The notes beneath the pieces were generated by a model. The model ran no database searches. It saw only the letters and a list, made by a program, of their open reading frames with translations, and was not told the DNA's origin. From a bacterium (GTDB taxonomy: Bacteria; Arandabacterota; Arandabacteria; Arandabacterales; JALGWA01): DNA of 29,341 nt. The DNA is taken from NCBI GenBank assembly GCA_050125095.1, contig JASFEA010000020.1:1-29341 (forward strand). The letters run 5' to 3'. A program made the position numbers and the translations under genes. Positions 9,468 through 25,496 of this stretch are shown here, in pieces; within the stretch, counting starts at the first letter, position 1, and every line of letters begins with the position of its first letter.

Positions 9468-9520
9468 TTGACAAACGCATTTAGTCGTATTAATTCTTAG
9501 TTACAAATAACTCCTATTTG
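9468..9520 (+). promoter_or_regulatory. Sigma70 promoter and putative PerR operator upstream of perR-catalase
   Basis: Perfect TTGACA (9468-9473), AT-rich -10 region near 9488-9496, then palindrome CAAATA-N5-TATTTG (9504-9520). Confidence 0.6.
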
Positions 9521-9538
9521 GAGTACGAAGCATCTATT

Positions 9539-10006
9539 ATGAAAACAGGCCACGGCGAAATCGATTCCAGGATGCGTGACTTCAGGCGGGCTTTCGGGCG
9601 CTCGGGGGCCAGGGTGACCCAGCAGCGGATCGAGATCTTCAAAGAGGTGGCCCGTACCGAAGAGCACCCGGACGCCGTGACTGTGCACAAGCGGGTGCGG
9701 AAGCGCCTGCCCACGATTTCACTGGACACCGTCTACCGCACCCTGTGGATGCTGATGGACATGGGGCTGATAAGCACTCTCGGAGTTTACCGCGAACGAG
9801 TACGATTCGATGGAAACACCGACGCCCACCACCATTTCATCTGCACGAGGTGCGGCATGGCAAGAGATCTATACAGCGGTGATCTTAGCAAATTGCGGGC
9901 TACAGAGGAGGTGAAGCGCCTGGGCAGCGTGGATACATCCCACGTGGAGTTCAGGGGAGTATGCTCTGAGTGCCTGAAGGCCGGGCGCCGAAAGGGCGGG
10001 AAATAG
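9539..10006 (+). CDS. perR: Fur-family transcriptional regulator, PerR-like
   Basis: TQQRIEI, HPDA, ISLDTVYRTL, RFDGN, HHHFICTRCG and CSEC zinc site; directly upstream of catalase. Confidence 0.85.
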   Translation: MKTGHGEIDSRMRDFRRAFGRSGARVTQQRIEIFKEVARTEEHPDAVTVHKRVRKRLPTISLDTVYRTLWMLMDMGLISTLGVYRERVRFDGNTDAHHHFICTRCGMARDLYSGDLSKLRATEEVKRLGSVDTSHVEFRGVCSECLKAGRRKGGK

Positions 10007-10043
10007 CGTGTTCACAACATCTCAAGTGTAAGGAGGTGCCGAG

Positions 10044-11585
10044 ATGGCGGAGAAGAAGAAAAAGAAGGAACCGACAAAGAAGAAGGGGAAGAAACTCACA
10101 ACCGCATTCGGAATCCCGGTTGGCGACGACCAGAACAGCCTCACGGCGGGCGAGCGCGGGCCGGTGCTGATGCAGGACGCCCACCTGCTTGAGAAGCTGG
10201 GCCACTTCGATCGTGAGCGCATACCCGAGCGCGTAGTCCATGCCAAGGGCGCGGGTGCGCACGGCTACTTCGAAGTCACGGCGGACGTCACCAAGTACAC
10301 CAAGGCCGCATTCCTGTCCAAAGTCGGAAAGCGCACCGAGGTATTCGCGCGCTTTTCAACCGTCGGCGGGGAGCGCGGTTCTGCCGACGCGGCGCGCGAC
10401 CCCCGGGGTTTTGCGGTGAAATTCTACACCGAAGAGGGCAATTACGACTTCGTGGGCAATAACACCCCCGTGTTCTTCATCCGGGACCCCCTCAAGTTTC
10501 CGGACTTCATACACACCCAGAAGCGGAATCCCGCTACAAACCTGCCGGATCCGGATATGTTCTGGGACTTCCTTTCTCTTACGCCGGAGTCCATCCATCA
10601 GGTCACGATCCTCTTCTCCGACAGGGGGACGCCGGCCACTTACCGCAACATGAACGGCTACAGCAGCCACACCTACAAGTGGTACAATAAGAAGGGCGAG
10701 TATTGCTGGGTGCAGTATCATTTCAAGACCGACCAGGGCATAAAGAACCTGACCCGGCAGGAATCCAAACGGCTCTGCGGCGAAGACCCGGACCATGCAA
10801 CCCGGGACCTTTATCAGGCGATAGAAAGGGGCGAGTACCCGTCATGGACCCTCGAGATGCAGATCCTGACTCCGGAGATGGCCAAGGACTTCGGATGGGA
10901 CATCTTCGACATTACCAAGGTATGGCCACACGGAGAGGTCCCTCCCATCAAGATCGGCAAGCTGGTCTTAAACCGCAATCCCGAGAACTACTTCGCCGAG
11001 GTGGAGCAGGCGGCCTTCTGCCCCGGCAACGTGGTGCCCGGCATAGCCGTTTCACCCGACAAGATGCTGCAGGCGAGGGTGTTTTCATATCATGACACCC
11101 ATCTGCACAGGCTGGGACCCAACTATCACCTCATTCCCGTAAATGCGCCGAGAAATGCGCCCGAGACCAGCTACCAGCGCGACGGTCTCATGCGCGTCGA
11201 CGGCAACGCGGGCGGCGGGCCCAATTACTGGCCTAACAGCATGGGAGGTCCCGAGCCGGATCCGGCGGTGGGCGAGCCCGAGTTCGATCTCGAAGGCAAG
11301 GCGGGCCGGTACCCGTTCACGTTTCCCAATGACGACTTCGTTCAGCCCGGCAACCTGTACCGCAAGGTCATGACGGATGAGGCCCGCGAACACCTGGTGG
11401 GCAACATAGTGGATCACCTGGGAAGGGCGCAGAAGCGCATTCAACTACGCCAGACGGCGCTGTTCTACAAGGCCGACAAGGACTACGGTACGGGCGTGGC
11501 CAAGGGGCTGGGTCTTGACGTCAAGGAGGTGAAGCGCCTGGCGGACATGTCGCAGGAGGCCCGGGCCAAAGCGACCGCCAGGTGA
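10044..11585 (+). CDS. katA: Monofunctional heme catalase (small subunit)
   Basis: [17 protein letters not shown] active-site signature, [21 protein letters not shown] proximal Tyr motif; RBS AAGGAGGT. Confidence 0.97.
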
Positions 11586-11655
11586 GTCTCTACCGGACGG
11601 GTCGCCGCCGGATGACTCCCCAGCGGACGAGCCTCTGCCAGACGAGTCCCCGCGG
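11581..11655. repeat. Degenerate 15-bp tandem repeat, 5 copies
   Basis: GGTGAGTCTCTACCG / GACGGGTCGCCGCCG / GATGACTCCCCAGCG / GACGAGCCTCTGCCA / GACGAGTCCCCGCGG. Confidence 0.7.
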
Positions 11656-11688
11656 CGGATTACGTGAGGCCGCGAGAGAATAAACGGA

Positions 11689-11716
11689 AGGGGAAGCTCC
11701 TTACGGGGCTTCCCCT
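11689..11716. terminator. Hairpin, likely terminator between convergent katA and prxU
   Basis: AGGGGAAGCTCC-TTAC-GGGGCTTCCCCT, 12-bp stem with one wobble; U-tract is weak. Confidence 0.65.
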
Positions 11717-11757
11717 CCTTAAAGAGGCAGATTACCCTCTGCCGATTGCACGGAATG

Positions 11758-12459
11758 CTAAGGCTTCCAGACCTCCCACACTCTTCCAACCAGGTCGGGT
11801 CCCGGGGTAAGCGTTTTGTCTCCGGGCCCCCAGCCCGACGGCGTTACCTCACCGGTTGCCGCAACGTGCTGGAATGCCTTGACCTGGCGCGTGAGCTCGG
11901 CGGGATTGCGCCCCACTTCGGGCGTCAGGACTTCCATGGCCCGAATAATGAAGTCGGGGTCGATTATGAAACGTCCGCGAATGTCGACACCCGCCGCCTC
12001 GTCATAGACCCCGTATGCGGCGCCTATATTGCCCCCGGCATCCGAGAGCATGGGGAAGGGGACACCGCCCTCCACCATCTTGGACAGCTCCTGCTCCTGC
12101 CAGATCTTATGGGTGAAGCGGCTGTCGGTGCTCATCGAGAGAACTACAACGCCAATCGACTTGAATTCATCGTAGCTGGCAGCGACCGCTGCCAATTCGG
12201 TAGGTCACACGAATGTGAAGTCGCCGGGATAGAAACACAGGACTATCCACTTGCCCTTGTAGCTTGAGAGCTTGATCGGCTTGAAACCCTCACCCGCGAT
12301 AAAGGCATTGGCCTCGAAATCAGGCGCCTCCGCGCCGACCCTTGCTCGCACCACCTTCACCTCCTCCTTTGGTATTGCCTTGTCCGGCCCCGAAGATCCA
12401 GCGTCGGCCTTGATGACTCCGCGCGCGGCTTTCACGCAACCGTCCTTCATCTTCGCCAT
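11758..12459 (-). CDS. prxU: Selenocysteine-containing peroxiredoxin (AhpC/TSA family), 233 aa; in-frame UGA at 12205-12207
   Basis: ORFs 12205..12465 and 11758..12195 are in one frame; read-through gives [13 protein letters not shown] where AhpC has FYPxDFTFVCPTE; RGRFIIDPD and GRN motifs; SECIS-like hairpin follows; ATG 12459 behind GGGAGGTG. Confidence 0.95.
12177..12194 (-). promoter_or_regulatory. Bacterial SECIS element of prxU
   Basis: After UGA: 10 nt, then stem UGGCAGC / loop GGUC / GCUGCCA; loop at +18 to +21. Confidence 0.85.
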
Positions 12460-23091: not shown

Positions 23092-24339
23092 CTACGCGCT
23101 CTCTATGAATGCCTCGCGGCTGTCACCGGTGATCTCGTAAACCTTCTTGAGAACCGCCTCCACCTCCGGCCCGGGCTCCACACCTCTCCGCCGCATCGCG
23201 CGGCCGGCCGTCTCGATAGCGCTGGAAAGATCGTACTCCTCGAAGCCCTGACTCCCGCCCCAGGAGAAGGATGCAATGAACTTGGGAGGATAACCCGCTC
23301 CGAATATATTGCAGCACGCGCCGACCACCGTTCCGGTATTGAACGTGGTGCCTATGCCGCACTTGGAGTGATCGCCCATGTAAAGCCCCACGAACATCTC
23401 GCCAGAGTCGACGGCCTTATCGTCAAGCCGCACCCTCACCGTCGAGTAATTATTCTTAAGGTCGCTCGTTTCCGTACCCGCGCCCAGATTGACCCACTCT
23501 CCCAGATACGAATGGCCGACAAAGCCCTCATGCTGCTTGTTGGCATAACCGTGCACGATGGTCTCGGCGACCTCGCCGCCGATCTTCGAGACCGGGCCGA
23601 TGGACGTCTCGCCGTAGATCTTGGCTCCCATCTTGATGGTGCTGCCCTCGCCGATATGGACCGGACCCTTGAGGCATGCATTGGCCATGACGGAGGCTCC
23701 GTTGCCGATGTGTACGGGTCCCTCGGACGCGTCGAGCACGACGCCGGGAGACAGTGACGCTCCCTCGCCGACGTATATGTCCGCCTCGTTTACGAGCCAT
23801 ACCCCGTCCGGGACCTCCGCGTGGATCCCCTTAAAACCGAGAAGTCGATGATCGCTTTCGATCTCAGGGCCGTTCAAGTTCACAAGGTCCCACGGGTAGT
23901 CGATGAACGCCGCCTCCACTTCGCGCACCGGGAGTCCGTCGAAGAGGCTCCCGGCGAGGGCCGAACCGACGGCCTCGTCCAGCGCCCCGGCGTGCTCCCT
24001 GCCCACGGCCGCGGCCACCACGGTCCCGCCGGACACATAAGCCCCACGCCAACCCGGCTCGAAAGCCCCGGCGAGGGCCGGCGTCATAACCACCCGGCCG
24101 TTTAAGAGAAGCGCCGGGTCTCCCTCTCCGAGCAGGTCGCTGTAGGACTTGACGGCGCCGCCGGCGACCGGCGCGAGATAGTCTCTCATGTGATAGCCGG
24201 CCACGGCTCCCAGCGCCATCTCAGACTTGCGCGCCAGCGTGAGAATGCCGCATCTTAAGCCGAACACGGGCCGTGTGAGAGCGAGGGGATAGAGGTTCTT
24301 AAAACGCTCGTCTTCAAAGATGATTACTGGGTTCGGCAC
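23092..24339 (-). CDS. GlmU-like putative sugar nucleotidyltransferase with hexapeptide-repeat domain
   Basis: LYPLALTRPVFGLRCGILT, PWDL, left-handed beta-helix repeats, NKQHEGFVGHSYLGEWVNLGAGT...SDLKN; RBS GGGAGG. Confidence 0.85.
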   Translation of the reverse strand: MPNPVIIFEDERFKNLYPLALTRPVFGLRCGILTLARKSEMALGAVAGYHMRDYLAPVAGGAVKSYSDLLGEGDPALLLNGRVVMTPALAGAFEPGWRGAYVSGGTVVAAAVGREHAGALDEAVGSALAGSLFDGLPVREVEAAFIDYPWDLVNLNGPEIESDHRLLGFKGIHAEVPDGVWLVNEADIYVGEGASLSPGVVLDASEGPVHIGNGASVMANACLKGPVHIGEGSTIKMGAKIYGETSIGPVSKIGGEVAETIVHGYANKQHEGFVGHSYLGEWVNLGAGTETSDLKNNYSTVRVRLDDKAVDSGEMFVGLYMGDHSKCGIGTTFNTGTVVGACCNIFGAGYPPKFIASFSWGGSQGFEEYDLSSAIETAGRAMRRRGVEPGPEVEAVLKKVYEITGDSREAFIESA

Positions 24340-24377
24340 TCAACCCTCCCATAAAGGTAATTAGCTTCCTGTAATTT

Positions 24378-24406
24378 ACTTTAGACGCTCACTTTTCGGC
24401 GGTCAA
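24378..24406 (-). promoter_or_regulatory. Sigma70 promoter for the GlmU-like gene
   Basis: Minus strand TTGACC-N17-TAAAGT. Confidence 0.55.
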
Positions 24407-24408
24407 CA

Positions 24409-24438
24409 TGAAACCTCTGGCACCCTAATGCCGTCCAA
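24409..24438 (+). promoter_or_regulatory. ECF sigma-type promoter upstream of the FmdB gene
   Basis: TGAAAC (24409-24414)-N17-CGTCCAA, resembling SigW/SigM-class promoters. Confidence 0.55.
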
Positions 24439-24464
24439 ATGCCGAGACCGAAGGGGTTCATGAA

Positions 24465-24656
24465 ATGCCAATACGTGAATATGAATGCAAAGACTGCCAA
24501 CTGAAGTTCGAGACTATCGAATTAGGCACAGACTCGGAAAAGCCAAGTTGCCCCCGCTGCCACTCCGAAAACGTGGAGAAAAAGCTGTCGCTCTTCTCAG
24601 GCTCCTCGGCGATGGGCGCTTCCTGCAAGATCACGCGGGGGTTCGGCTGAGGCTAG
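24465..24656 (+). CDS. FmdB-family zinc-ribbon protein, probably a selenoprotein ending ...C-K-I-T-R-G-F-G-U-G (end is 24650 if UGA is a stop)
   Basis: MPIREYECKDC...CPRCHS family motif is clear; the 3' end reads GGC TGA GGC TAG followed by a SECIS-like hairpin. Confidence refers to the gene; Sec read-through is inferred. Confidence 0.8.
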
Positions 24657-24660
24657 CCGC

Positions 24661-24681
24661 CTGCGGCGGTCAGCCGCTCAG
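24661..24681 (+). promoter_or_regulatory. Candidate SECIS element of the FmdB gene
   Basis: CU-GCGGC / GGUCA / GCCGC-(UC bulge)-AG; GGUC at +18 to +21 after UGA, the same offset as in prxU. Confidence 0.62.
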
Positions 24682-25496
24682 TTCTCCTTCCATTCTCCGT
24701 GGCCGGGAACCGGCGCCCTCAGACCCTTCTGCCGCCTGACAAGGTTCCGGAAGTAAGGGCCCAGTGTCCTGAGCTCGTCCGGAGTCGGAAAGAGTATGTT
24801 GTTGGTCTTGAAGTTGAAAACCCCGGACCTCCCCTCTCCTCCCGGCCCATAGCCCGCAGCGATCCCGTGCCAGGCTTCGTCGTACCTGAAAAGCGCCAGC
24901 ACCACGAGCCACGTGTCATCGAGGCGCCCGCCCAGGAGTTTGTCTATCCAGGCATCGATGTCCACTACCGCCCAGCCGTCTGCCGTCCCATACACATGAA
25001 TACGGGTCAGGGTGATGCGGGAGCCCTCGCCAACCCAGATTGACTTCTCGGGAAGATACCACTCGTGGAAAGTCACTGCCGTGTCCGCCCATACCGAACC
25101 GGGATGATATCCAAGTATGCTGTAGGGAACCGGCGTCTTGAGCTCCTCCAGGAAGGATATTCTCACCACGCCGGGCTTTCCGCGCTCGCCGCGCCGCCGC
25201 TCGATCTCGGTCACGAGCTCAAACGGAACGCGCGTCTTCCCCCCGAAGTCACCGAGGGCACTGCCTATGTCTTCGGTGCTGAGCTTCCCGTAAGCGTCGG
25301 CCTCGGCGAGCCCTATCAGGTACGCGAAGAAACGGTCCTTTACTTCCTCTTCGGGGAGAACGATCTCAGAGCCCGGGAGGGAAGTCTCGGGAGGCGTTTC
25401 CGAATACGCCGGCCCGCTTATGGCCCCGGCCAGCAGGACAGCGCAGACAAACACCGGGGTCGCGGGCGAATTGCCCAGAATCTTAAGCTTGTGCAA
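24678..25496 (-). CDS. Secreted hypothetical protein
   Basis: 272-aa ORF with signal-peptide-like N-terminus and protein-like composition (PVPYSILGYHPGS, DIDAWIDKLLGGRLDD); no family recognised. Confidence 0.7.
   Translation of the reverse strand: MHKLKILGNSPATPVFVCAVLLAGAISGPAYSETPPETSLPGSEIVLPEEEVKDRFFAYLIGLAEADAYGKLSTEDIGSALGDFGGKTRVPFELVTEIERRRGERGKPGVVRISFLEELKTPVPYSILGYHPGSVWADTAVTFHEWYLPEKSIWVGEGSRITLTRIHVYGTADGWAVVDIDAWIDKLLGGRLDDTWLVVLALFRYDEAWHGIAAGYGPGGEGRSGVFNFKTNNILFPTPDELRTLGPYFRNLVRRQKGLRAPVPGHGEWKEN

Follow-up and report, generated by a model that had tools for sequence, protein, structure and literature searches.

The FmdB-family gene that starts at position 24465 of the 29 341-nt stretch of DNA analysed here (the window) very likely encodes a selenoprotein of 63 residues, in which selenocysteine (Sec) and a final glycine follow what appears to be the end of the ORF. 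The annotated gene closes with a UGA that is followed by a GGC codon, a UAG and a short hairpin; this arrangement is conserved at two related loci (L001 and L002) and is rare among the other TGA triplets of the same DNA, and from it we infer insertion of Sec at the UGA. The features involved are as follows.

24465..24650 (+): FmdB-family ORF, 61 residues under table 11 and 63 with the UGA read as Sec
24465..24647 (+): FmdB zinc-ribbon CDS to Gly61, the part visible to annotation (PF09723, TIGR02605)
24624–24626 (+): tail Cys54, nearly invariant (conserved in ≥90 % of an alignment of 50 sequences)
24648..24650 (+): UGA, the proposed Sec codon (U62); TGA also follows ...GFG in L001 and ...GFT in L002
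24651..24653 (+): GGC, the proposed last residue (Gly63), identical in the window, L001 and L002
24654..24656 (+): UAG, the proposed true stop; TAG in the window and L001 and TAA in L002, so that the stop function is kept
24657–24662 (+): 6-base spacer from the TAG to the hairpin
24663..24677 (+): hairpin in the 3′ untranslated region, proposed as the SECIS, with stem GCGGC (24663–24667)/GCCGC (24673–24677) and loop GGUCA (24668–24672)
24678..25496 (−): convergent 272-aa ORF, whose stop codon abuts the hairpin; it lies outside the element but limits its space

The original prediction, made from the sequence of the window, had assigned the gene product to the FmdB family, and this assignment holds, as the protein scored above the cut-off for both Pfam PF09723 (Zn_ribbon_8; 44.6 bits, cut-off 34.4) and TIGR02605 (45.4 bits, cut-off 31.3). 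FmdB proteins begin at an initiator Met in the context MPIxEYxC and carry two CxxC motifs approximately 17 residues apart; the window protein has the N-terminus MPIREYEC and the knuckles C8-x2-C11 and C29-x2-C32, with 17 residues between them. All four zinc-knuckle positions are Cys, and a Ser-rich linker follows the knuckles. A PDB sequence search with the protein returned generic zinc fingers and ribbons only and no solved member of the family. AlphaFold2, using a 50-sequence alignment, modelled the ribbon with modest confidence (pLDDT ~70–84) and the tail from residue 43 with a pLDDT of ~50, a value that predicts a disordered or flexible segment, in line with the flexibility first proposed for it. 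An Atlas search with the table-11 protein returned Zn_ribbon_8 clusters, which were commonest in Thermodesulfobacteriota, a weak lead.

The 3′ codons of the gene read TGC AAG ATC ACG CGG GGG TTC GGC TGA GGC TAG, confirming that a UGA (24648–24650) lies two codons, itself and GGC (24651–24653), before a UAG (24654–24656). Translation with TGA as Sec yields 63 residues and the C-terminus ...SCKITRGFGUG, i.e. the C-x7-U-G tail that had been proposed (C54-x7-U62-G63). The hairpin begins 13 bases 3′ of the UGA, is held in the 21-base gap between two convergent stops and displays GGUC at +18..+21 after the UGA. Its GCGGC/GCCGC stem and the offset of GGUC were described correctly at the outset, but the loop is GGUCA, of five bases rather than four. 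The convergent gene noted at the same time is also present (24678..25496, minus strand). It belongs to no Pfam or NCBIfam family and is conserved in L001 (3226–4047, minus strand; 272 aa in the window and 273 aa in L001).

SelB recognises the classical fdhF loop, which is GGUC. Both the bSECISearch spacing rules and the bacterial SECIS consensus place a stem-loop just 3′ of the UGA, its first loop positions being occupied by G. We scored a TGA as having a SECIS-like structure if it was followed by a perfect Watson–Crick hairpin (stem ≥5 bp) whose loop begins with GGT or GT at +14..+24. The two strands of the window contain 917 TGA triplets, and only 3 of these are followed by such a hairpin, namely the FmdB TGA, the Sec TGA of a prxU gene described below and an out-of-frame TGA at 24188 (−); in L001, the FmdB TGA is the single case among 181. 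The TGA at 24188 lies inside a glmU-like gene, has a GT-starting loop at +18 and is taken as chance background. The TGA-GGC-stop triplet series is similarly scarce, occurring at 2 of 920 TGAs in the window, 1 of 181 in L001 and 1 of 130 in L002, with one occurrence in each source being the FmdB site. Nine of the 20 gene models in the window end in TGA, and the FmdB gene alone has a stop two codons later. The combination of UGA-GGC-stop and hairpin is not a chance arrangement.

A terminator reading of the hairpin was considered and rejected, as no terminator-like site was called on either strand in 24250–24800 and no T-run follows the hairpin. The possibility raised with the original prediction, that the hairpin serves only as a terminator for the convergent gene, was accordingly not upheld, the more so since L002 has a comparable 3′ end with no convergent gene.

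The window also contains an intact selenoprotein gene for comparison.

11758..12459 (−): prxU selenoprotein gene, with the Sec codon at 12205–12207 and a SECIS hairpin at ~12177–12194

The PrxU protein matched NCBIfam NF040737 (peroxi_PrxU) with 362.4 bits against a cut-off of 270, and its UGA is located at the peroxidatic position in the context GDFTFVUPTE. The SECIS of prxU has a 7-bp stem, the loop of which presents GGUC at +18..+21 from the UGA; GGUC is thus found at the same offset behind both UGAs, as was claimed when the FmdB hairpin was first reported. The intact prxU gene constitutes indirect evidence, from within the window, that the source organism reads UGA as Sec. No selA, selB, selC or selD was detected among the ORFs scanned in the 29 kb window, and no tRNAs were found in it (0). 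The prxU gene is part of a peroxide-stress cluster at 9518–12459, together with genes for a PerR-like Fur-family regulator (9518..10006, +) and a catalase (10044..11585, +).

A scan of genome contigs returned three loci (L001, L002 and L003) among 10 pattern matches. L001 comes from an uncultured-bacterium MAG, encodes an FmdB protein with 61 % identity to that of the window and has the same gene order. Its 3′ end reads ...RGFSRGFG TGA GGC TAG followed by GGCGGC-GGUCC-GCCGCC, with GGUC at +18. Comparison of the two loci revealed 120/183 identical bases across the CDS and 30/61 at CDS third positions, whereas TGAGGCTAG is identical at 9/9 bases and the hairpin at 14/15, and the spacer at 24657–24662 retains only 1/6. 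That the codon triplet and the hairpin have been kept when the spacer and the synonymous sites have diverged argues for present selection on the element.

L002, from a Bacillota MAG, encodes an FmdB protein with 52 % identity in a gene context unlike that of the window. Its gene ends ...GSRGGFT TGA GGC TAA, and the sequence behind it adopts, as its minimum-energy fold, a long hairpin that begins immediately 3′ of the UGA and presents a GUGA loop at +18..+21; the apical stem comprises 3 bp and a bulge, and the structure fails the strict 5-bp hairpin test. The gene downstream is co-directional and encodes a DUF302 protein, and there is no convergent gene, so a terminator-only reading fails to explain the conservation. 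The region after TGA GGC TAA in L002 (955–990) carries an imperfect tandem direct repeat of ~16 bases, the copies of which pair into the one long hairpin of the minimum-energy fold. Across 312–1436 of this locus, the FmdB gene is positioned between genes for a YgaP-like membrane protein and the DUF302 protein.

TGA-GGC-stop is therefore kept in 3/3 loci of the C-terminal tail type for which DNA was obtained (the window, L001 and L002), a set that represents two independent lineages only. The earlier suggestion that homologues should show a conserved TGA-GGN-stop with a hairpin was borne out at both L001 and L002, and their conservation supports the interpretation as a whole, i.e. an FmdB zinc ribbon with a C-x7-U-G tail and a SECIS past the true stop. 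The third locus, L003 (Daviesbacteria), serves as an outgroup; it encodes a classical FmdB protein with a ...KGKGFFSTDYK... tail and ends in TAA.

Searches of plasmids with tblastn, returning four records per search, recovered distant FmdB types that we used as controls only. Among these, the Methylococcus gene stops at TAG, the Paraburkholderia gene at TAA and the Legionella gene at a TGA with no structure behind it. Thermomicrobium roseum (L004/L008, plasmid NC_011961.1, 817991–820912) encodes an FmdB-type protein with a single-Cys tail, ...SCSTGGG, that stops at TGA. A strong hairpin (−27.5 kcal/mol, z −2.07) follows this TGA, its GUG loop being located at ~+24; the frame behind the TGA runs for four codons before a stop, with no GGN-stop. 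The T. roseum gene is located in a cluster of the order ArsR–zinc ribbon–DUF302–MBL-fold hydrolase–rhodanese, and the pairing of zinc ribbon and DUF302 in both L002 and T. roseum hints at sulfur or persulfide handling for this class of tail.

Upstream of the FmdB gene, the 5′ leader (24380–24464; L001 2917–3000) is intergenic and separates this gene from the divergent glmU-like gene. It is identical to L001 at 69/84 positions, above the 120/183 of the CDS. We detected no significant fold in it (z −0.45) and one promoter-like site, on the minus strand. The leader contains CGGCGGTCA, which resembles the core of the 3′ hairpin.

The protein homologues were inspected at the positions where their annotation ends. 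The annotated C-terminus is GFG in 13 of 15 close homologues (one of them the window protein), RFG in one and SPT in one. An exhaustive search of representatives yielded 1148 matches at E ≤0.001, of which the best 150 were examined. Among these best 150 of 1148, 59 have a single tail Cys, 39 of the 59 are annotated as ending 6–8 residues after it (any linker length), and the ends are typically ...C-x(4-6)-G-F-[STGKR]. Multi-Cys classes of FmdB tail, including ...CGxCGDPRGPGxCxxN and ...CGCTPxxCGCH, were also seen in this set. Genes neighbouring those of relatives encode DUF302, rhodanese, MBL-fold hydrolase and ArsR proteins. In the FmdB loci with 7- or 11-residue Cys spacing (window, L001 and L002), the annotated ‘end’ proved to be UGA-GGC-stop in 3/3 cases; the spacing in the tail of T. 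roseum is 5 residues. The window gene could tentatively be regarded as belonging to a large class of selenoproteins that annotation does not show, a possibility that we consider worth stating and, on balance, doubtful.

Homologues with Cys in place of Sec were suggested as a further line of support when the gene was first described, and none was encountered: no Cys aligned with U62 among the 15 close homologues or the best 150 of 1148 representatives, and tail-focused searches (with read-through residues 22–63 or with the read-through protein of L002) recovered nothing beyond the protein used as query. Nor did a Cys-Gly follow the GF motif in the best 150 of 1148 or in the tail-focused searches. 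Since only the best 150 of 1148 were examined, the absence of Cys forms is not established.

Folding of the free window RNA with RNAfold gave a different hairpin, GCCGCC-UGC-GGCGGU, as the minimum-energy structure, and on account of this more stable competing fold the pair probability of GCGGC-GGUCA-GCCGC was 0.01. When the UGA and the next 6–10 bases were held single-stranded, a constraint that mimics a ribosome on the UGA and is based on the size of the ribosome footprint, the FmdB hairpin became the minimum-energy fold (−10.3 kcal/mol, p ~0.78). The competing fold of the window makes use of the non-conserved spacer and is therefore not the conserved structure. RNAalifold, applied to four sequences, returned four pairs and no compensatory changes, from an alignment in which PrxU aligned poorly and the sequences were too few; the bases of the FmdB stem, which in the window is only 5 bp long, are conserved and do not covary. 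At the gathering threshold, Rfam gave no match in the window. In E-value mode, its only match at the FmdB hairpin was to a miRNA, by chance, and the true SECIS of prxU went undetected, so that the Rfam result is uninformative.

Several readings that dispense with a functional Sec codon have to be weighed against these data. The gene could encode an ordinary FmdB protein of 61 residues that ends at the UGA, the hairpin being a 3′-end or stability element common to the convergent transcripts and GGC-TAG merely a part of it. The placement of the hairpin in the 21-base gap between convergent stops is compatible with such an element, the convergent synteny recurs in L001, and neither a Cys form (15 close homologues, best 150 of 1148, tail-focused searches) nor covariation (RNAalifold, four sequences) was found. 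However, L002, in which the downstream gene is co-directional, still has TGA-GGC-TAA followed by a hairpin at an unchanged offset, and the window has no T-run behind the hairpin and no terminator-like site in 24250–24800. An ordinary FmdB gene would also leave unexplained why the second stop stays in frame even though TAG has changed to TAA, and why the loop and its offset equal those of the PrxU SECIS, and we regard this account as unlikely.

It is less probable still, and in our view quite improbable, that the element is a relic of a lineage in which Sec was once inserted, now inefficient and with the 61-residue product as the functional one. The short stem (5 bp) and the greater stability of the competing fold in free RNA speak for a decayed element, but the conservation of triplet and hairpin against a diverged spacer and diverged synonymous sites indicates selection at present. 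Finally, the UGA might be read through by a near-cognate Trp or Cys tRNA without Sec, or might form half of a fail-safe tandem stop, a second in-frame stop behind a leaky UGA being a known safeguard. Neither version needs a conserved GGC between the stops or a GGUC-loop hairpin at the SECIS offset, and the likelihood of this reading is very slight. The doubt that remains over insertion of Sec stems from the few loci for which DNA was obtained, the lack of a Cys form and of covariation, the short stem and a Sec machinery unseen in the window.

With Sec inserted at the UGA, as we favour, residues 1–42 would form the four-Cys FmdB zinc ribbon, and residues 43–63 a flexible tail ending S-C54-KITRGFG-U62-G63. 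A ribosome positioned at the UGA at 24648 would draw the bases just 3′ into the mRNA channel, leaving GCGGC-GGUCA-GCCGC as the remaining fold; SelB with Sec-tRNA(Sec) would bind the GGUC loop and deliver Sec, after which one Gly would be added and translation would end at the UAG. Because the SECIS lies wholly beyond this UAG, it would never be translated. An untranslated SECIS supports near-C-terminal Sec insertion in E. coli, with truncation by RF2 in competition, in the account given in PMC3834832, and the part of the description of SaoC used here (10.1101/2022.07.06.499078) provides a natural case of UGA-UAG with a 3′ hairpin and a GGU loop. RF2 would compete at the UGA of the FmdB gene too, so that a 61-residue form without Sec is expected alongside the full form, and its share would be higher when selenium is scarce. 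More speculatively, a reversible selenenylsulfide may link Cys54 to Sec62, or the pair may bind a metal or a persulfide, and the zinc ribbon may dock the Cys54/Sec62 tail onto a partner.

FmdB selenoproteins have been predicted previously from the GOS metagenome (Zhang and Gladyshev 2008), with Sec in the zinc knuckle and the motif CxxU as given in PMC2398784; the motif is listed as U/CxxU in the table of a 2022 review (PMC9312934) and as UxxU in that of a 2026 review (PMC13188914). These proteins share with the window protein a COG2331/TIGR02605 zinc ribbon and a predicted Sec, but in the GOS type Sec replaces a knuckle Cys, whereas the window protein retains four knuckle Cys and has a penultimate Sec in its tail. 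A GOS-type FmdB selenoprotein was consequently rejected for the window, as there is no UGA at a knuckle CxxC.

Other bacterial proteins carry Sec at or next to the C-terminus, as the window protein would. SaoC ends Cys-Sec-COOH with its real stop directly after the UGA, and KCU-star ends Lys-Cys-Sec-COOH, according to the sections of the Haft and Gwadz preprint drawn on here (10.1101/2022.07.06.499078); from this ending, the SECIS of KCU-star is presumably untranslated. Both belong to unrelated families in which Cys adjoins Sec (CU) and Sec is the last residue, whereas the tail of the window protein has C-x7-U and a Gly after Sec. We rejected KCU-star (NF033934), UXX-star (NF041114 and NF041211) and SaoC (NF040734) as identities for the read-through proteins of the window, L001 and L002, none of which listed these families at E ≤10; NCBIfam release 20 gave TIGR02605 only for the read-through proteins, in searches where HMMER filters drop most matches with E above ~0.1.

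A man-made counterpart is the Sel-tag, the motif of which is Gly-Cys-Sec-Gly. Recombinant TrxR and Sel-tag proteins produced in E. coli have a near-C-terminal Sec and an untranslated SECIS of bacterial type, as set out in PMC3834832. The element in the window differs from the Sel-tag in being natural and in having no adjacent Cys. The tails of animal SelS, SelK and TrxR (GCUG) are flexible and Gly-rich, with a penultimate or near-terminal Sec followed by Gly and a partner Cys upstream. In SelS, the pair is Cys174–Sec188 (PMC3628699). These proteins are eukaryotic, use another type of SECIS and have no sequence homology to the window protein, so that the likeness concerns only the possible working of the tail; the comparison with TrxR drawn in the original prediction stands as an analogy only.

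The dual CXXC motif small (seleno)protein family NF041197 resembles the window protein in its small size, two CxxC motifs and single Sec. Its Sec is found near the CxxC motifs (RxU or GxU) and not at the C-terminus, going by its entry in the review table (PMC13188914). This family was also rejected, as the window protein had no match to it at E ≤10 and the relative P0052 matched with an E value of 0.28 (11.4 bits, cut-off 40). The same table includes KCU-star, UXX-star, SaoC and other families, and the rows of it consulted here contain no C-terminal-Sec form of FmdB (PMC13188914). A full-text literature search, with supplements and the latest selenoprotein surveys outside its scope, likewise found no description of a C-terminal-Sec FmdB tail. 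FmdB selenoproteins and the recoding mechanism are already known, and what is new is the position of Sec, here in the tail, with the proposed SECIS in the 3′ untranslated region, a prior description being possible.

There are methods of selenoprotein discovery that rely on homology past the UGA or on Sec/Cys pairs, as outlined in PMC13188914 and PMC12013277. Because a single codon follows its UGA and no Cys form is known, the FmdB gene is likely to be missed by either approach, and annotation probably overlooks a type of selenoprotein here because the ORF looks complete at the UGA. We know of no established function for FmdB-type zinc ribbons. If the reading proposed here is true, these proteins gain a chemical handle in the form of a Cys...Sec tail, selenoproteome counts would be too low for Thermodesulfobacteriota-like and some Bacillota genomes, and the FmdB gene would offer a natural bacterial SECIS located wholly outside the reading frame, the counterpart in nature of the engineered Sel-tag. 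Should it prove general, the C-x(6-8)-U-G tail of these zinc ribbons would rank with the more widely distributed selenoprotein modules of bacteria and could represent a Cys/Sec selenenylsulfide or persulfide-carrying arm.
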